From contig JAYVHM010000007.1 of NCBI GenBank assembly GCA_043771335.1, forward strand, positions 3,625-67,624: 64,000 nucleotides of DNA, given 5' to 3'. Below, piece by piece: positions 30,331-47,819 of the stretch; the first letter of the stretch is position 1, and every line of letters starts with the position of its first letter. The notes below the pieces were generated by a model. That model ran no database searches, had not been told where the DNA came from, and saw nothing but the letters and a program-made list of their open reading frames with translations. Source of the stretch: a bacterium (GTDB lineage: Bacteria; Patescibacteriota; Minisyncoccia; Phycocordibacterales; UBA5272). The translations under genes and the position numbers were made by a program.

Positions 30331-32805
30331 ATGAAATATTCAAAAAAATGGCTACAAGAATATATAGAAGAAACATTGCCAACAGATGAGGATGTGGAAA
30401 AAGCTTTGAATGCAAAAGCTTTTGAAGTAGAGGGAGTAGAGCATGTCGAGAGTGATAGTATTTTTGATATAAAAGTTCTGCCAAATAGAGCTCATGATGC
30501 GCTCGGTCACATAGGCATGGCACGTGAATTATCTGCTTGCCTTAATTTTACTTTTAACAATAAAATAGAAAAAGAAATAGAAGGAATAAAAAATAAAATC
30601 CTCGATAAGGAAAATGCTTTTGAAATAGCAGGCAAGAGAATAAATAAGACAGATAAAAAAATATCAGTAGACGTTGCAGATGAAAAAGCTTGCAGTAGAT
30701 TCATTACCATTAGAATAGATGGAGTAAAAGTTGGTGCTACTCCAGACTTTATAAAAACAGCCCTGAATAATATAGGTCAAAAAAGCATAAATAATATTGT
30801 CGACATTACTAATTATGTGCAATTCGTCCTGAATAAGCCAATGCATGCTTATGACGCTAATAATATTGAGAGTGGAATAATAGTTAGATACGCAGAAGAT
30901 GGAGAAAAGTTAGTAACGCTAGATGATAAGGAATTAATTCTAGATGAGAAAACTTTGGTAATAGCAGATCATAAAAAAGTCTTGGGACTCGCTGGTATAA
31001 AAGGTGGTAAATACTCTGGAGTGAGCGCAGATACTACGAGTATAATAATAGAAAGTGCGAATTTTGAACCGGTACTAATAAGAAAAACTAGTCAAAAATA
31101 TAATCTTAAAACAGATGCCAGTAAAAGATTTGAGAATGGTATATCAGATCAATTAATAGAAGATGGATTATATTACACATTAAAGTTAATTTTAGAAAAT
31201 TGTGCCAACGGTGAAGATGTTAAAGTCTCAGAAGTTACAGATGTTTTTAACAATAAAAAGAAAAATAAATATTTTATAGGTGTAACTCAAAATGAAATCA
31301 ATACTGTTCTGGGTAGTAATTTTGATAAAGCAGAAATAGAAAATACTTTTAAAAGATTAGGTTTTGAATATGAAGAGATAAATACTTTAGATTTTATTAA
31401 AAACAATATAGAAAAAGTAATGAGTGCAGAGTATAAAAATCCTTCTAATGTACAAAATGATGCACCAGAGTATTTCTCTTGTTCCTCACTTGTTTCTTAT
31501 TTATTTAGGGGTATCTGGTTACCTTCATTATCAATAGATAAATATGTTTTTTGTAAAAAAATAAGTGAGAGTGAAAATATTGAGGATTTAGAAAAAGATA
31601 ATATATTAAAATATGGTGACCTGATATTCGCAAATACTGGTGAAGGAAAAATAAGATATGAGAGTGTAGAATATATGCGTGGTACAAAAGTAGAAGCAGG
31701 CGCAGACCATGTTGGTATTTATATTGGTGAAGGAAAAGTATTACATGCTACAAAAGTTAAGGGTAGAGTAGCGATAGAAAGTATTGCTGATTTTAAAAAT
31801 GGTAGAAAGATTGTAGGTGTAGGTAGAGTGTCTGAAAACCTCGAAGAGAAAAGGTATATAGTGTATGTTCCGCATGAGAGACTGGATCTTAAAATAAAAG
31901 AAAATATAATAGAGGAGGTGGGGAGGATAATAGGCTATGATAAATTAATACCAACACTGCCAAAACTCATAAATGAAATAGGAGAGCAAAAAACAGGAAT
32001 CATAAACAAAGAATTATATTATCAAAATGTAATTAAAAATATCTTATTTAAAAATAATTATTCAGAAGTGATGGGTTATTCTTTTGTAGAAAAGGGTGAA
32101 GTGTCACTGTTAAAAGCAGCCAGTACCAAAAATAAACTTCGCACAAATATAAGTAATGGCATGATTGAGAGTGTGCAGAAAAATATAAATAATATGCCAC
32201 TGCTACAGATAGATACTGTAAAGGTATTTGAATTTGGAAAAGTTTTTGATAATGAAGGTGAACATTTTAATCTTTGCATTGCTTGTGATGATGGGAAAAA
32301 GAAAAGTAATTTTGCTGAAAATGTAGATCTTGTGCTTGGTGAAATAAAAAGTAATTTAAAGCTTGAGAAAATAGAATATGAAGTAAAAAATGTAAAGCCT
32401 TATATAATAGAAATTGATTTTGATAATATGTTAAGTAGTCTTAATGCAGAAACCGAAAATATCTTTTTATCAGGTGAATACACAAATAAAAATATTAAGT
32501 ATAAATCATTTAGCCAAATGCCATTTATTATTCGTGACGTAGCTTTTTGGATTGAGGAGAGTAATGAATTATTAAAAAACAAAGATAGTATTTCAGAAAT
32601 GATAAAAGAGAATGCAGGAGACCTGTGTATGGAAGTGGTAAAATTTGATGAATTCAAAAAAGAAATAGATGGAGTACAAAAAATATCTTTAGGATACAGA
32701 TTAATATACCAGTCTTTTGAAAAGACGTTAACTGACGAAGAGGTGAATGTTCAAAGTGATAAAGTTTATGAAAAGCTAAAAGAAATCGGCTTGGAAATAA
32801 GATAG
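30331..32805 (+). CDS. pheT: Phenylalanyl-tRNA synthetase beta subunit, lacking N-terminal OB tRNA-binding domain, with NlpC/P60-like domain inserted in B5
   Basis: N-terminus MKYSKKWLQEYIE, B3/4, B5 (LGF..VYVPHERLDL..IEEVGRIIGYD), catalytic-like and C-terminal FDX-ACB-like regions; residues about 351-508 match NlpC/P60 motifs. Confidence 0.9.
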   Translation: MKYSKKWLQEYIEETLPTDEDVEKALNAKAFEVEGVEHVESDSIFDIKVLPNRAHDALGHIGMARELSACLNFTFNNKIEKEIEGIKNKILDKENAFEIAGKRINKTDKKISVDVADEKACSRFITIRIDGVKVGATPDFIKTALNNIGQKSINNIVDITNYVQFVLNKPMHAYDANNIESGIIVRYAEDGEKLVTLDDKELILDEKTLVIADHKKVLGLAGIKGGKYSGVSADTTSIIIESANFEPVLIRKTSQKYNLKTDASKRFENGISDQLIEDGLYYTLKLILENCANGEDVKVSEVTDVFNNKKKNKYFIGVTQNEINTVLGSNFDKAEIENTFKRLGFEYEEINTLDFIKNNIEKVMSAEYKNPSNVQNDAPEYFSCSSLVSYLFRGIWLPSLSIDKYVFCKKISESENIEDLEKDNILKYGDLIFANTGEGKIRYESVEYMRGTKVEAGADHVGIYIGEGKVLHATKVKGRVAIESIADFKNGRKIVGVGRVSENLEEKRYIVYVPHERLDLKIKENIIEEVGRIIGYDKLIPTLPKLINEIGEQKTGIINKELYYQNVIKNILFKNNYSEVMGYSFVEKGEVSLLKAASTKNKLRTNISNGMIESVQKNINNMPLLQIDTVKVFEFGKVFDNEGEHFNLCIACDDGKKKSNFAENVDLVLGEIKSNLKLEKIEYEVKNVKPYIIEIDFDNMLSSLNAETENIFLSGEYTNKNIKYKSFSQMPFIIRDVAFWIEESNELLKNKDSISEMIKENAGDLCMEVVKFDEFKKEIDGVQKISLGYRLIYQSFEKTLTDEEVNVQSDKVYEKLKEIGLEIR

Positions 32806-33006: not shown

Positions 33007-33774
33007 ATGAACCTAATTTTAAATAAAGATTTGGCTAAGGACTACAGTAATCTTTCTCAAAAAGCTAGAGTAATGACAGAAGACTGGGTTTTGAACGAAA
33101 TATATTGCCCAAGTTGTGGCACTGTTATTTATAGTTATATAAATAACAAACCAGTCGCAGACTTCTATTGTAAAAAATGTTTAGAGGATTTTGAGTTAAA
33201 ATCTAAACAAGATAAAATTGGGTCTAAGGTTTCCGCAGGAGCTTATTCAAAAATGATTGAGAGAATTAATTCCAAAGAAAAACCAAATTTTTTCTTTATG
33301 AGTTATTTATTAAAAGTTTCAAGTGTTAATGATTTTTTTATTGTCCCGAAACATTTTTTTATACCTGAGATAATTGAGCAAAGAAAGCCACTAGCAGAAA
33401 GTGCTAGGCGAGCTGGTTGGATAGGTTCAAATATTTTATTCTCAAAAATACCGAAAGCTGGGCAAATTTTTTATGTAGAAAATGGTAAAATTTTTGATAA
33501 AAAAGAGGTTTTAGAAAAATGGCAAAAAACATTGTTTTTGAAAGAAGTAAAGAAGCCTGAAGCTAGAGGATGGATTTTAGATGTTATGAACTGTATAGAC
33601 TCTCTAAACAAGAAAGAGTTTACGTTGAAAGAAATTTATGAATTTGAAAAAGATTTATTAAATATACACCCTAAAAATAAAAATATTAAACCAAAAATTA
33701 GACAGCAGTTACAATTTTTAAGAGATAAAGGTTATTTAGAGTTTTTAGAGCCAGGTAAATATAAATTAAAATAG
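33007..33774 (+). CDS. DpnI-like methyl-directed (Type IIM) restriction endonuclease
   Basis: Near full-length similarity to R.DpnI: SQKARILTEDWV..YCP.CG, RPVADFYC..C.EEFELKSK, NPNFFF, RKPLA..ARRAGWIG.NI, KIRQQLQ.LRDK. Confidence 0.85.
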   Translation: MNLILNKDLAKDYSNLSQKARVMTEDWVLNEIYCPSCGTVIYSYINNKPVADFYCKKCLEDFELKSKQDKIGSKVSAGAYSKMIERINSKEKPNFFFMSYLLKVSSVNDFFIVPKHFFIPEIIEQRKPLAESARRAGWIGSNILFSKIPKAGQIFYVENGKIFDKKEVLEKWQKTLFLKEVKKPEARGWILDVMNCIDSLNKKEFTLKEIYEFEKDLLNIHPKNKNIKPKIRQQLQFLRDKGYLEFLEPGKYKLK

Positions 33775-34428: not shown

Positions 34429-35511
34429 GTGAAAATTCTAGAAAATATAGAATTAAAAAAATACAGTACATTTTATGTGGGTGGCGTGTGTAAATACTTT
34501 ATAGAAATAAATAACAGAGAAGATATTGTTAATGCTTTTGATTTTATAAAATTAAAAAAAGAAGAAATAGAAATAGATGATTTTTACATATTAGGCATGG
34601 GCTCTAATACTATATTTTCTAATAATTTACACAGAACATGTATTTTAAAAATTAATATAAAAAATGAAAATAGTTTTGAAATAATAAATAATTCAAATCT
34701 CGAAAATAGAAATCTAGATGAAAATGTCTATGTAAAAGCTAATTCTGCTGAAGTTTGGGATGACCTAGTTTTATTTTCTTGTGAGAGTGGTTATTGTGGG
34801 CTAGAAAATCTATCTTATATACCGGGTCATGTCGGCGCTGCGCCAGTGCAGAATATAGGAGCATATGGAGTAGAAGCAAAAGATCTAATCAAGAATGTAG
34901 AAGTTTATAATGTAGAAAAAAACATTTTTGAAATACTAGAAAATAATCTATTAAATAATATAGAAGAAAATAATTTAGAATTTGAATATAGGGATAGTCT
35001 TTTTAAGAAAAATAAAAATAAATATGTGATATTAAGCGTAACTTTTCTTTTAAATAAAAATAAAAATAATCCTGATTCTAAATACGAAGGCTTAGATATT
35101 TTAGAATCAGATAGTCTGTTAGAGATTAGGAATAAAATAATAAATATTCGAAAAAGTAAATTACCAGAATGGAAAGATGTACCTAATTGTGGATCATTTT
35201 TCAAAAACCCTATAATTACAAAAGAGGAATTAGATTTTATTTTAAGTAAAAATAAAAGTATAAAATATTTTGAAGTTATATGTAAACAAGAAATAAAATA
35301 CAAGCTGTCAGCAGCCCAAATAATAGATTCCCTCAATATAAAAGGCTTAGAAATCGGCGGGGCAAAAGTGAGTCCTCGTCATGCATTAATAATTATAAAT
35401 GAAAACAAGGAAGCAACTTTTCAAGATGTTTATGATTTAAGTGAAGACATCTTAAGTAAAGTAACTAGCTTTTATAATATAATTTTAGAGAGAGAAGTTA
35501 ATATGTTATAA
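34429..35511 (+). CDS. murB: UDP-N-acetylenolpyruvoylglucosamine reductase MurB (GTG start 2 nt after tRNA-Ile)
   Basis: L..YSTF.VGG N-terminus (FAD-binding), IPGHVGAAPVQNIGAYG, C-terminal MurB domain. Confidence 0.85.
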   Translation: MKILENIELKKYSTFYVGGVCKYFIEINNREDIVNAFDFIKLKKEEIEIDDFYILGMGSNTIFSNNLHRTCILKINIKNENSFEIINNSNLENRNLDENVYVKANSAEVWDDLVLFSCESGYCGLENLSYIPGHVGAAPVQNIGAYGVEAKDLIKNVEVYNVEKNIFEILENNLLNNIEENNLEFEYRDSLFKKNKNKYVILSVTFLLNKNKNNPDSKYEGLDILESDSLLEIRNKIINIRKSKLPEWKDVPNCGSFFKNPIITKEELDFILSKNKSIKYFEVICKQEIKYKLSAAQIIDSLNIKGLEIGGAKVSPRHALIIINENKEATFQDVYDLSEDILSKVTSFYNIILEREVNML

Positions 35512-35526
35512 TGGTTTTAATAAAAC

Positions 35527-36873
35527 ATGCAAAAATTTAGAGTAACAGGGGGCAAAGAATTAAGTGGTATTATAGAGCCACAGGGGTCTAAAAATGAAGC
35601 TTTGCAAATAGTTGCCAGTAGTATAATAGTGCAAAAATTAAAAATAATAAATTGCCCAAATATTTTAGACATTAGGAATCTTTTAATCATTTTAGAAAAT
35701 GCAGGCTCAAAAATAAAATGGGAAAAACAAAATAATAAAAATATTTTATATATAGACACCACAAAAATAGATTTTGAATATTTTAAAAGTGATGAATATT
35801 TGAAATTATCAGAAAAACTTCGTGGGTCATTAATGCTTATCGGTCCATTGCTATCCCGCTTTGGAAAAGCCTACATTCCAAGTGTTGGTGGCGATAAGAT
35901 AGGTAAGAGACCGATTGACACACACATTAACGGATTCTTAAAAGTAGGAGCCAGTATACAAAAAGACGAAAGAGGTTTTGAGTATTTGGAACTTTTAGAA
36001 AATAATATAAAAAAAGACAGACAGATAATCTTAGAAGAGCCATCAGTAACAGGCACGGCAAATATTATTTTTGCTTTAACTAAGAAAATAAATAAAGTAG
36101 ATGGACTTGTAAAAAACATCTCTTTGTATAATGCTGCTTGCGAGACATACGTGTCACAATTAGTCTCTCTTTTAAATAAATCAGGAATGAATATACTGGG
36201 TATCGGTTCTAATCTTTTAAATATAAATGGAGACATGCAAAATATTTTTGAGACAGAAATAGAGCATACAGTGCTTCCTGATTTTATAGAAGTAGCTAGC
36301 TTTATCTCTCTTGCTATGGCGACCAAAAGTGAAATCACGATAAAGAATGCTGGAGTTGCTAATCTCGACATGACTATTAAAATGTTTGAAAAGTTAGGTT
36401 GTAGATTTGAGATTATAGGTGATGATATAAAAGTTCTGAAACAAGAAAGTTACACAATACAAAAGATGCATGACGGTAGCATGATGACAATATACAGTGC
36501 ACCATGGCCTATGGTAAGTCCAGACATATTAAGTGTGGGAATAGTGGCTGCATTACAGTCAGAGGGGTCAGTGCTTTTTCATGAGAAGATGTATGAAGCT
36601 AGGATGTTTTTTGTAGACAAGTTAGTGGCTATGAATGGTAGTATAGTCCTGTGTGACCCACATCGAGTAGTGGTGAATGGTAATAACTGGAAAGAAAGAT
36701 TGTTGGCTCGGAACATGACGAGCCCTGACATACGTGCGGGTATCGCCCTACTCATCGCCGCCCTCGGCGCTGGTGGGATCAGTGTAATAGATAATGTAGA
36801 TCAGATAGATAGAGGATATGAGAACATAGAAATGCGCCTCGCTGCGCTCGGCGCAGATATTGTGAGGGTATAA
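35527..36873 (+). CDS. murA: UDP-N-acetylglucosamine 1-carboxyvinyltransferase MurA
   Basis: RVTGGKELSG.I...GSKNEALQI N-terminus, EPT-fold repeats, 448 aa. Confidence 0.9.
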   Translation: MQKFRVTGGKELSGIIEPQGSKNEALQIVASSIIVQKLKIINCPNILDIRNLLIILENAGSKIKWEKQNNKNILYIDTTKIDFEYFKSDEYLKLSEKLRGSLMLIGPLLSRFGKAYIPSVGGDKIGKRPIDTHINGFLKVGASIQKDERGFEYLELLENNIKKDRQIILEEPSVTGTANIIFALTKKINKVDGLVKNISLYNAACETYVSQLVSLLNKSGMNILGIGSNLLNINGDMQNIFETEIEHTVLPDFIEVASFISLAMATKSEITIKNAGVANLDMTIKMFEKLGCRFEIIGDDIKVLKQESYTIQKMHDGSMMTIYSAPWPMVSPDILSVGIVAALQSEGSVLFHEKMYEARMFFVDKLVAMNGSIVLCDPHRVVVNGNNWKERLLARNMTSPDIRAGIALLIAALGAGGISVIDNVDQIDRGYENIEMRLAALGADIVRV

Positions 36874-45187: not shown

Positions 45188-45259
45188 GCTCTCGTAGTTC
45201 AATGGATAGAATATGGGTTTGCGGTACCCACGATGTAGGTTCGATTCCTACCGAGAGCA
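45188..45259 (+). tRNA. tRNA-Arg (GCG as read)
   Basis: Acceptor gctctcg/cgagagc, D-loop aatggata, anticodon stem tgggt/accca with loop ttGCGgt, T-loop ttcgatt. Confidence 0.7.
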
Positions 45260-45267
45260 CAAAATAT

Positions 45268-47726: not shown

Positions 47727-47800
47727 CCTTCCATAGCTCAGTTGGTTAGAGCACTCGGCTTATATCCGAGTGGTCCCTGGTTCGAGTCCAGGTGGAAGGA
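47727..47800 (+). tRNA. tRNA-Ile (TAT anticodon as read), C1-G72
   Basis: Acceptor ccttcca/tggaagg, D-arm gctcagttggttagagc, anticodon stem ctcgg/ccgag with loop ctTATat, T-loop ttcgagt. Confidence 0.7.
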
Positions 47801-47819
47801 CTAGTTATTCCATATATTA

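Follow-up and report, generated by a model that had tools for sequence, protein, structure and literature searches.

The pheT gene in the window, that is, the whole stretch of 64,000 nucleotides analysed here, encodes a β subunit of phenylalanyl-tRNA synthetase (PheRS) that contains a genuine NlpC/P60 (MEROPS C40) cysteine peptidase domain nested in the tip of the B5 β-hairpin. The B5 and NlpC/P60 domains form one compact two-domain unit, which is found both embedded in PheT and as a free-standing gene (described below). The gene is one uninterrupted frame, as the initial annotation of this DNA had stated, and its features are as follows:

30331..32805, + strand: pheT ORF, 824 aa plus stop, one open frame; PheRS β without the B2 OB-fold and with an NlpC/P60 insertion
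30688..31203, + strand: B3/B4 editing domain, residues 120–291 (PF03483, 192 bits)
31270..31371, + strand: B5 N-terminal half, residues 314–347 (strand, two helices, strand; from the 2rhs_B alignment and the secondary structure of the model)
31372..31851, + strand: NlpC/P60 (C40) papain-like cysteine peptidase domain, residues 348–507, at the tip of the B5 β-hairpin
31432..31434, + strand: Tyr368 codon (TAT), invariant or near-invariant depending on the comparison; probably corresponds to Tyr226 of YkfC, which stabilises the transition state
31480..31482, + strand: catalytic Cys384 codon (TGT); Cys in 232/234 embedded and 22/22 free-standing modules
31708..31710, + strand: catalytic His460 codon (CAT); His in 231/234 embedded and 22/22 free-standing modules
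31744..31746, + strand: third triad residue His472 codon (CAT); His in 228/234 embedded and 18/22 free-standing modules
31852..31938, + strand: B5 C-terminal half, residues 508–536, with the R517-x-D519 ... E528-E529 motif (B5 profile positions 34–67)
31999..32313, + strand: catalytic-like module (B6/B7), residues 557–661 (PF17759 tRNA_synthFbeta, 32.4 bits)
32512..32802, + strand: FDX-ACB anticodon-binding domain (B8), residues 728–824 (PF03147, 56.5 bits)

According to Pfam, the B3/B4, B5, catalytic-like, and FDX-ACB domains follow one another in the canonical order of PheRS β, and the B5 domain is split into two stretches, the C-terminal of which (residues 503–536) covers profile positions 34–67 of 67. 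The best Foldseek matches of the full-length AF2 model (pLDDT 83.5) were bacterial PheT chains (E ~1e-44). Comparison between the window PheT and canonical PheTs (Thermus thermophilus 1PYS/2IY5, Escherichia coli 3PCO, and Staphylococcus haemolyticus 2RHS) revealed that the key residues of B3/B4, the R-x-D...EE motif of B5 (whose R517 and D519 are present in 234/234 embedded PheTs), the catalytic-like module, and the FDX-ACB domain are alike. The differences are that (i) the window PheT does not have the B2 OB-fold, as had been noted earlier: no Pfam match to tRNA_bind (PF01588) was found in it, PF01588 is likewise missing from the Pfam lists of the best 120 PheT homologues, and residue 42 pairs with residue 155 of E. 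coli PheT in the alignment; (ii) a 160-residue peptidase domain occupies the place of a hairpin of ~5 residues; (iii) the score against TIGR00472 pheT_bact (376.2 bits) lies under the equivalog cut-off of 402.65; and (iv) pheT does not adjoin pheS, which was not found within the window, whereas most relatives retain the pheS-pheT operon.

The editing site of B3/B4 in E. coli PheT is formed by R244, N254, Y255, H265, F267, A312, G318, and E334 (PMC12449066). The aligned residues of the window PheT are K, N, Y, H, Y, G, G, and E, that is, 5/8 identical and 3/8 conservatively changed, and the canonical editing site therefore looks intact. A replacement of a decayed editing domain by the inserted module is thus rejected for the window protein.

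In the alignment with S. haemolyticus PheT (2rhs_B), residues 314–347 of the window protein correspond to chain residues 411–444, and the correspondence resumes at residue 508 with chain residue 450, which confirms that the insert lies inside B5. The initial annotation had placed it at 31381–31854, within 3 codons of the boundaries given above, as ~155 aa in place of ~10 residues; the insertion between the two B5 halves stands, and its size is revised to ~160 residues (348–507) in place of a hairpin turn of ~5. Pfam NLPC_P60 (PF00877) matched residues 379–487 with 34.5 bits in the whole protein and with 40.5 bits (E 2.8e-10) when the insert was searched alone, against a gathering cut-off of 23 bits, and the motifs quoted earlier for this family (YFSCSSLVSYLF, GIWLPSLS, GDLIF, and HVGIYIGEGKVLHA) are all present in the ORF. 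In the AF2 model of the B5-NlpC module (pLDDT 86.6, pTM 0.83), the insert has the papain-like α+β fold of NlpC/P60, and the two B5 halves, both in frame, fold together. Neither by profile nor by fold did the insert match the known aminoacyl-tRNA editing or deacylase folds (B3/B4, YbaK/INS, AlaX, DTD, and CP1).

An artefact or a mobile insertion, be it a chimeric assembly, two genes fused by a frameshift, an intein, or an element that arrived recently, has next to no chance of explaining this architecture, and no point in its favour was found. The junctions read ...GFEY|EEINT... and ...LEEK|RYIVY...; no match of PheT to Hint/intein families was obtained at E<=1, the insert has neither direct nor inverted repeats at its flanks, and its GC content (0.304) equals that of the remaining pheT (0.297). 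An intein or mobile element is therefore rejected, as the earlier reading had held from the base composition and the absence of Hint motifs. An assembly chimera is rejected as well, since independent runs yielded 5 contigs that encode the identical 824-aa protein among the same neighbouring genes, and >230 orthologues from many projects have the same architecture.

The PF00877-bearing architecture is present in 120/120 of the best PheT homologues (47–100% identity, Paceibacterota MAGs), so that the insertion is lineage-wide and not recent. The 166 clusters (50% identity) obtained at E<=1e-30 are, for most of those listed, PheTs of ~780 aa with the module at approximately residues 295–510, and the conservation of the insert exceeds that of three native PheT regions. 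Judged from these sequences, the insert is an ancient trait of a clade of ultra-small Paceibacteria/Parcubacteria (CPR) bacteria, one that purifying selection has maintained. No account of the architecture was found in the literature searched on NlpC with PheRS, tRNA synthetases or CPR, on Parcubacteria PheT, on CPR aminoacyl-tRNA synthetase architecture, or on B5. The earlier statement that it is not a described PheT architecture holds in this sense, but the architecture is undescribed rather than unseen, since precomputed annotation in the databases already shows it.

Few enzymes are as conserved as the aminoacyl-tRNA synthetases, and they have rarely gained, across a whole lineage, a complete catalytic domain that belongs to an unrelated class of enzymes; the known cases marked a new activity (editing or signalling). 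In the present case, PheRS β has retained an intact cysteine peptidase throughout a large clade of CPR bacteria. The editing insertions of other synthetases (CP1 of Leu/Ile/ValRS, INS of ProRS, and N2 of ThrRS) are likewise lineage-conserved hydrolase-fold domains in a synthetase loop. However, the module differs from them in having an unrelated fold and chemistry, that of a papain-like thiol enzyme, and in that its host keeps its own editing domain.

Cys384, at the N-terminus of a helix, His460, and His472 follow one another in the NlpC/P60 order of Cys, His, and a third polar residue (His, Asn, or Gln), and the earlier report of an intact Cys-His-His triad is borne out across the family: each residue is kept in ~97–99% of the 234 embedded modules, and the third position is Gln in the remaining 4/22 free-standing ones. 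The DAP and GD motifs are, together with Tyr368, invariant among modules. These data bear on whether the domain might be catalytically silent, with a structural, oligomerisation, or ligand-sensing role such as muropeptide sensing that couples translation to the state of the cell wall. Inactive NlpC/P60 binding proteins do exist; the NCBIfam entry RipD describes a peptidoglycan-binding NlpC/P60 member, which one free-standing protein (P0008) matches weakly, and the pTM of the B5-NlpC model suggests a rigid unit. The nucleophile is normally lost in pseudo-enzymes, whereas here the triad is retained in both forms of the module and Tyr368 and the DAP and GD motifs are conserved too, which makes a silent domain highly improbable.

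The triad order and the upstream Tyr are shared with the γ-D-glutamyl-diamino-acid endopeptidases of the NlpC/P60 (C40) family (MepS/Spr, LytE, CwlO, Clostridioides difficile Acd24020, and YkfC). In these known enzymes the domain is joined to SH3b, to LysM, or to a signal peptide, whereas the module is nested in an aminoacyl-tRNA synthetase domain and its sequences do not have a signal peptide; in addition, ~20 further residues form a conserved hairpin between its GDLIF and DHVG motifs. The markers of γ-D-Glu-specific NlpC/P60 enzymes are, in YkfC numbering, Tyr226, Trp228, Asp237, Ser239, and a small residue at 257 (Xu et al. 2010, PMC2954226). Based on motif spacing and this study, Tyr368 is the probable equivalent of Tyr226. 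The corresponding pocket residues of the window module, assigned by motif alignment rather than structural superposition, are Tyr368, Asn370, Ser383, Ser385, and Ser401 (subtype Y-N-S-S-S-S-K). Two of the four γ-D-Glu markers are changed (Trp228 to Asn370 and Asp237 to Ser383), the equivalent of YkfC Arg255 is Ser399, and the window module does not have the residue set that defines γ-D-Glu specificity (PMC2954226). Therefore, the papain-like fold named in the initial annotation is retained, but the label of a cell-wall amidase should not be assumed for the window protein.

By contrast, roughly 40% of the family sequences have the S1 pattern Y-[YLFW]-D-S-R-[STA]-Q, which matches the γ-D-Glu site of YkfC (PMC2954226), an enzyme that is cytoplasmic like the module (PMC9928106). 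Relative to this pattern, the window subtype shows coordinated D->S, R->S, and Q->K changes, and its specificity is thus probably altered.

We infer the activity, the substrate class, and the tRNA independence of the module, which may be an autonomous, active cytoplasmic Cys-His-His amidase carried by PheRS, a reading that we consider to have an even chance of being correct. Its substrate is probably a γ-D-Glu-type or related small peptide. His460 would activate and His472 orient Cys384 for an attack on the amide carbonyl of a small cytoplasmic substrate; water would then resolve the resulting acyl-thioester, and Tyr368 would stabilise the transition state. For the ancestral substrate, a γ-D-glutamyl-containing (murein-peptide-like) peptide would be most likely. 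The Asp/Ser/Arg/small-residue S1 pocket is present in ~40% of the family; in the window subtype the specificity would have shifted. PheRS would be the carrier and expression partner, and the NlpC domain would stand outside the chemistry of aminoacylation and editing. Cytoplasmic NlpC/P60 recycling peptidases provide a precedent (PMC9928106).

A gene for a Peptidase_C39_2 protein lies directly downstream of the module gene at 7 embedded loci and ~1.5 kb away at an eighth, and directly downstream at 4 free-standing loci too; no C39-like gene was found within the window. This frequently adjacent cysteine peptidase probably acts in the same pathway as the module. None of the proteins searched with PADLOC (the module, its free-standing form, and the neighbouring C39-like peptidase) gave a match, and an anti-phage defence module is thus rejected.

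The free-standing B5::NlpC/P60 gene encodes ~220 aa and adjoins, at 10/10 loci examined, the gene of a mitochondrial-type single-chain PheRS composed of a PheS core and an anticodon-binding domain. The pairs occur in two gene orders, and in one pair the genes overlap by 4 nt; this locus was read as a translationally coupled operon. The partner scores 249–251 bits against TIGR00469 pheS_mito, just under the equivalog cut-offs of TIGR00469 and NF051887 (“PheS-related mystery ligase SrmL”), and the literature on bacterial monomeric PheRS and SrmL yielded nothing relevant. As in the mitochondrial-type PheRS (human FARS2, 3CMQ/3TUP), its class II PheS core is followed by FDX-ACB, but it is bacterial (Parcubacteria) and, in some lineages, has the B5::NlpC gene beside it. 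These architectures offer a natural series for tracing how a heterotetrameric PheRS can shrink to a mitochondrial-like monomer in bacteria.

In a neighbour-joining tree, at least 3 clades of embedded modules also contain free-standing ones; since the tree has no support values, it tells no more than that the free-standing forms do not branch outside the embedded ones, and the number of independent origins is uncertain. The R-x-D...EE motif, invariant in PheT, is degenerate or lost in the free-standing B5. It appears that the B5::NlpC unit can work without the remaining PheT and has been kept as a ~220-aa gene in several single-chain-PheRS sublineages. The unit would then have persisted while PheRS turned into a single chain and the remainder of the β subunit was lost, which speaks for an independent function under selection. 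Beyond what the first reading had noticed, this free-standing form beside single-chain PheRS and the linked C39-like gene are the most informative facts.

The persistence of the module next to PheRS also bears on whether the target of the NlpC/P60 Cys is (mis)charged tRNAPhe, at its aminoacyl ester, or Phe-AMP, with either hydrolysis (a second, thiol-based editing or quality-control activity) or LRAT-type acyl transfer to an acceptor as the outcome; the free-standing B5::NlpC would then act in trans where the single-chain PheRS has no B3/B4. The association of the module with PheRS spans two unrelated architectures and two gene orders, and in one case includes the 4-nt overlap. This linkage, including the coupled operon, exceeds what a carrier role predicts, and a function on Phe-tRNA fits just as well. 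To our knowledge, every hydrolytic domain known inside an aminoacyl-tRNA synthetase is an editing domain, which counts against the carrier reading.

Such a tRNA-directed role draws further on the E. coli PheRS, in which B5 touches the B3/B4 insert helices and the α subunit (PMC12449066), which would bring the insert close to the catalytic machinery. In the free-standing B5, however, the α-interface motif is lost, and close relatives with a single-chain PheRS (73% identical, same synteny) have no module gene at the syntenic site, so that a trans-editing partner would not be required. CtdA, a canavanyl-tRNAArg deacylase of the B3/B4 fold, is a precedent for a PheT domain turned free-standing deacylase (PMC12449066). 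Like CtdA, the free-standing B5::NlpC is a piece of PheT found as an independent small protein in some genomes, but it combines B5 with a foreign peptidase instead of an editing domain and stays beside the PheRS gene.

The chemistry can likewise be read in both directions. Acyltransferases exist in the NlpC/P60 superfamily, the insert weakly matched LRAT in the profile search (E 0.005), and the S1 pocket of the window module is remodelled away from γ-D-Glu recognition with the gain of a Lys; yet the complete γ-D-Glu S1 signature in ~40% of the family and the conserved C39-like neighbour point toward peptide chemistry, and the canonical B3/B4 editing site of the window PheT is intact. With median pI values of 5.5 (embedded) and 6.2 (free-standing), the module is acidic to neutral, which gives no support to a nucleic-acid-binding character. 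We regard an attack on charged tRNAPhe or Phe-AMP as unlikely. Slightly less likely still, in our estimate, is that B5::NlpC/P60 is a new thiol-based PheRS accessory with Phe-AMP or the aminoacyl ester of tRNAPhe as its substrate, which it would either use in a second proofreading step or from which it would pass Phe on to an acceptor outside the ribosome (a cell-wall peptide, for instance), with the C39-like neighbour completing the pathway and the unit serving as a trans-acting partner after PheRS shrank to a single chain. What Cys384 cleaves, and whether Phe-tRNA is involved, is a tractable biochemical question.

The C39-like peptidase is cytoplasmic and often directly follows the module gene in both architectures. 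NCBI names some orthologues of the window protein “C40 family peptidase” or “PheT-related”; some essential PheT genes thus currently carry the name of a peptidase.

The initial annotation had read pheT, the gene of the PheRS beta subunit, as one uninterrupted frame with an NlpC/P60 domain inside B5. It forms a single ORF (30331–32805, + strand) of 824 aa, in which all the NlpC/P60 motifs quoted there are present. B5 is matched in two stretches, and the Pfam domains of PheT include:

residues 120–291, B3_4
residues 379–487, NLPC_P60
residues 503–536, C-terminal stretch of B5 (profile positions 34–67 of 67)
residues 557–661, tRNA_synthFbeta
residues 728–824, FDX-ACB

The NlpC/P60 identity is upheld by the Pfam profile, which scores 34.5 bits with the whole protein and 40.5 bits (E 2.8e-10) with the insert alone (gathering score 23); the RipB, p60 and RipC endopeptidases are weak NCBIfam matches. 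The whole protein scores 376 bits with TIGR00472 (pheT_bact), just below the 402.65-bit equivalog cut-off of NCBIfam. Alignment with the solved S. haemolyticus PheT, in which residues 314–347 correspond to chain residues 411–444 and residues 508 onward to 450 onward, delimits an insert of 160 residues (348–507; nt 31372–31851) where the reference has ~5. Further properties noted from the sequence also held: (i) the base composition of the insert is like that of its host gene (GC 0.304 versus 0.297 for the rest of pheT); (ii) the Pfam search of PheT gave no Hint or intein match; and (iii) the B2 OB-fold is absent, with residue 42 aligned to E. coli residue 155 and no PF01588 match. No repeats were found flanking the insert. 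An artefact is excluded with near certainty, the identical protein being encoded on five contigs that come from independent assemblies and show the same neighbours each time. The nesting of an NlpC/P60 domain in the B5 domain of PheT is confirmed.

The structure of the B5-peptidase region (residues 314–545) was predicted with AlphaFold2 from an alignment of free-standing homologues (described below), with a mean pLDDT of 86.6 and a pTM of 0.83. According to the secondary structure of the model, the peptidase exits and re-enters B5 between two neighbouring strands, that is to say, at the tip of a β-hairpin. For a model of two domains this pTM is high, suggesting a single rigid unit made up of B5 and the peptidase. 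For full-length PheT, the model had a pLDDT of 83.5 and a pTM of 0.61, and a structure search with it retrieved bacterial PheT chains at E ~1e-44 and, separately, an NlpC/P60 structure. We designate the unit of B5 N-half, NlpC/P60 domain and B5 C-half the module.

The insertion proved to be shared by orthologues. PF00877 lies between the B5 halves in all of the best 120 full-protein homologues (47–100% identity; Paceibacterota/Parcubacteria MAGs from NCBI, JGI, ENA and Logan), all of which lack tRNA_bind; in NCBI, some are annotated as “C40 family peptidase” or “PheT-related protein”. A module profile searched against 1.84 billion cluster representatives matched 166 clusters at E<=1e-30. Among the matches listed, the majority are PheTs of ~780 aa in which the module occupies roughly residues 295–510, and about a dozen are proteins of 195–235 aa. 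A few proteins matched the NlpC part of the profile in 4–10 tandem stretches (P0135, 1183 aa; P0267, 666 aa; P0263, 398 aa) and appear to be multi-repeat NlpC/P60 proteins unrelated to PheT. In 234 embedded modules, Cys384 is kept in 232, His460 in 231, His472 in 228 and Asp430 in all, and the DAP motif and Phe382 are almost invariant. The insert has a mean pairwise identity of 0.64 among the 120 orthologues (its core, 0.69), compared with 0.75 for B3/B4, 0.60 for the N-terminal region, 0.58 for FDX-ACB and 0.56 for the catalytic-like module. The lineage-wide distribution, the triad conservation and these identities point to an old domain, under strong purifying selection and with its active site intact. 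The domain in the B5 hairpin is thus real, ancient and conserved; that it is a pseudo-enzyme is unlikely given the conserved triad.

The same B5::NlpC unit also exists as an independent gene. A search with the insert alone retrieved nine proteins of 212–237 aa consisting of the B5 N-half, NlpC/P60 and the B5 C-half. In all ten loci examined that carry a free-standing module (L001, L004, L017, L018, L019, L026, L027, L090, L092 and L094), it adjoins a single-chain PheRS of ~372–382 aa, in which the PheS catalytic core is fused to FDX-ACB, the same architecture as that of mitochondrial PheRS. Examples of this gene (~380 aa, PheS core then FDX-ACB) are:

L001:8845–9963, − strand, single-chain PheRS gene
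L004:8814–9962, − strand, single-chain PheRS gene
L090:2684–3832, + strand, single-chain PheRS gene
L092:2847–3995, + strand, single-chain PheRS gene

The two genes are divergent, or in tandem with the module directly downstream, and in L090 they overlap by 4 nt. The single-chain PheRS scores 249–251 bits with TIGR00469 (pheS_mito) and 249–261 bits with NF051887 (“PheS-related mystery ligase SrmL”), both just below cut-off. In the seven of these loci whose 6–10 kb flanks were searched for it, there was no coding sequence for B3/B4 or the catalytic-like module. Single-chain PheRS genes occur widely among Parcubacteria (Zambryski-, Harrison-, Colwell-, Lipton- and Nomurabacteria), and the loci L086–L089 also have one; a bacterial monomeric PheRS was not the subject of any paper in the literature searched. 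Besides the ten loci above, four have a single-chain PheRS gene with no adjoining module gene. Two module-less loci share with L001 the gyrB-PheRS adjacency, and one of them (L089) also retains the downstream GT2 gene; since just 45–96 bp occupy the expected module position, these close relatives can dispense with the module there.

When 151 modules were placed in a neighbour-joining tree, computed with no support values, the 22 free-standing modules fell into at least 3 clades nested among embedded ones; the tree indicates only that free-standing modules do not form an outgroup but are derived from or interleaved with embedded ones. The invariant B5 motif of PheT, which we take to form a Mg2+ site together with the alpha subunit (UniProt annotation, E. 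coli PheT), has been lost from the B5 of free-standing modules (of the 22, R517 is kept in 9, D519 in 11 and E528 in 2). In most embedded loci, a canonical pheS lies immediately upstream of pheT. Since it is only ~30% identical to the single-chain core, the single-chain PheRS is not a recent local derivative. In most relatives (for example, L007, L008, L010–L015, L020–L023 and L028) pheS ends at the start of pheT, as an operon; in the window, L006 and L016, pheT stands alone and is preceded, across a gap of 300 bp, by an efp of divergent orientation, and the 64-kb window contains no pheS.

Both forms of the module are genetically linked to PheRS and often also to a C39-like peptidase. This Peptidase_C39_2 gene (PF13529; ~170–206 aa) immediately follows the NlpC-bearing gene in seven embedded loci (L007–L010, L013, L023 and L024) and four free-standing loci (L026, L090, L092 and L094); in L016 it is ~1.5 kb away. 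Examples (PF13529) are:

L010:7472–7984, + strand, C39-like gene
L023:6231–6764, + strand, C39-like gene
L026:6575–7120, + strand, C39-like gene
L090:4483–5103, + strand, C39-like gene
L092:4765–5343, + strand, C39-like gene

PF13529 was above threshold in all 4 proteins tested. Cys and His are conserved and a signal peptide is absent, and the protein is predicted to be cytoplasmic. It gave no PDB sequence relative and no PADLOC match.

In NlpC/P60 enzymes, the S1 pocket for γ-D-Glu is made up of Tyr226, Trp228 (a position that is usually hydrophobic), Asp237, Ser239 and, at position 257, a small residue, with Arg255 in its hydrogen-bond network (Xu et al., PMC2954226). The equivalent columns split the module family into two co-varying subtypes: a canonical one, Y-[Y/L/F/W]-D-S-R-[S/T/A]-Q, in roughly 40% of sampled sequences, and that of the window, Y-N-S-S-S-S-K, which is over-sampled, the window having been the starting point of the search. 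Each subtype is found in embedded as well as free-standing modules, and the C39-like linkage is seen with both. The frequency of the canonical pattern and its presence in both architectures make the ancestral enzyme look like a γ-D-Glu-specific amidase; the joint change of three or four pocket residues suggests an altered specificity in the window's subtype.

The E. coli B3/B4 editing residues are R244, N254, Y255, H265, F267, A312, G318 and E334 (PMC12449066), at which the window PheT aligns K, N, Y, H, Y, G, G and E. With these residues retained, the native editing site looks functional and the peptidase is an addition; a role as substitute for the editing domain was rejected for this protein on the same ground. 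B5 touches the B3/B4 insert helices and the alpha subunit (PMC12449066), which would place the insert near the catalytic machinery. The main rival reading, favoured by the tight operon linkage to PheRS, is that the substrate of the module is aminoacyl-tRNAPhe or Phe-AMP, its role being proofreading or aminoacyl transfer. We consider this rather improbable, given that the B3/B4 site is intact, that many family members have the canonical S1 pocket, that close relatives have lost the module and that its surface is acidic; the median pI is acidic to neutral (5.5 embedded, 6.2 free-standing), with no sign of tRNA binding. Our preferred reading, to which we would give an even chance, is that the module is a thiol amidase that works autonomously in the cytoplasm on a small γ-D-Glu-type peptide or derivative, with PheRS as carrier or expression partner; some other function takes the probability left over. 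Cytoplasmic NlpC/P60 enzymes of murein-peptide recycling are known (YkfC in Bacillus and in Chlamydia; PMC9928106).

None of the domain families is new, and the PheT::NlpC/P60 architecture is visible in automated annotation; no paper on a PheRS or PheT with an NlpC/P60 insert was found in the literature searched, outside which most subscription journals lie. A synthetase with an acquired accessory domain is a known frame. It is unusual that the accessory domain of PheRS is a papain-like peptidase, that the B5::NlpC unit outlasts an otherwise lost beta subunit, and that its conserved neighbour is a second peptidase.

Downstream of pheT, the window encodes tRNA-Ser, a DpnI-family gene, a glyoxalase gene, tRNA-Ile, murB and murA, and the 64 kb contain no C39-like gene. 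The complete DpnI-family gene (33007–33774, + strand; methyl-directed restriction endonuclease, “Dam-replacing”; matching PF06044 with 249 bits, and also DpnI_C) separates tRNA-Ser from the glyoxalase gene, just past pheT, where related genomes have the C39-like gene. murB and a murA-type enolpyruvyl transferase (34429–36873, + strand) follow ~1.6 kb after pheT. With these genes the organism makes peptidoglycan precursors, a point that bears on a murein-peptide substrate for the NlpC/P60 domain. ARAGORN also identified tRNA-Ile with anticodon UAU (47727–47801, + strand) and tRNA-Arg with anticodon GCG (45188–45260, + strand). In bacteria, AUA is usually decoded by a CAU tRNA carrying lysidine, and CGN by a tRNA whose ACG anticodon is modified to ICG; both tRNAs of the window are, to our knowledge, unusual for bacteria and may reflect loss of TilS and TadA in the lineage.
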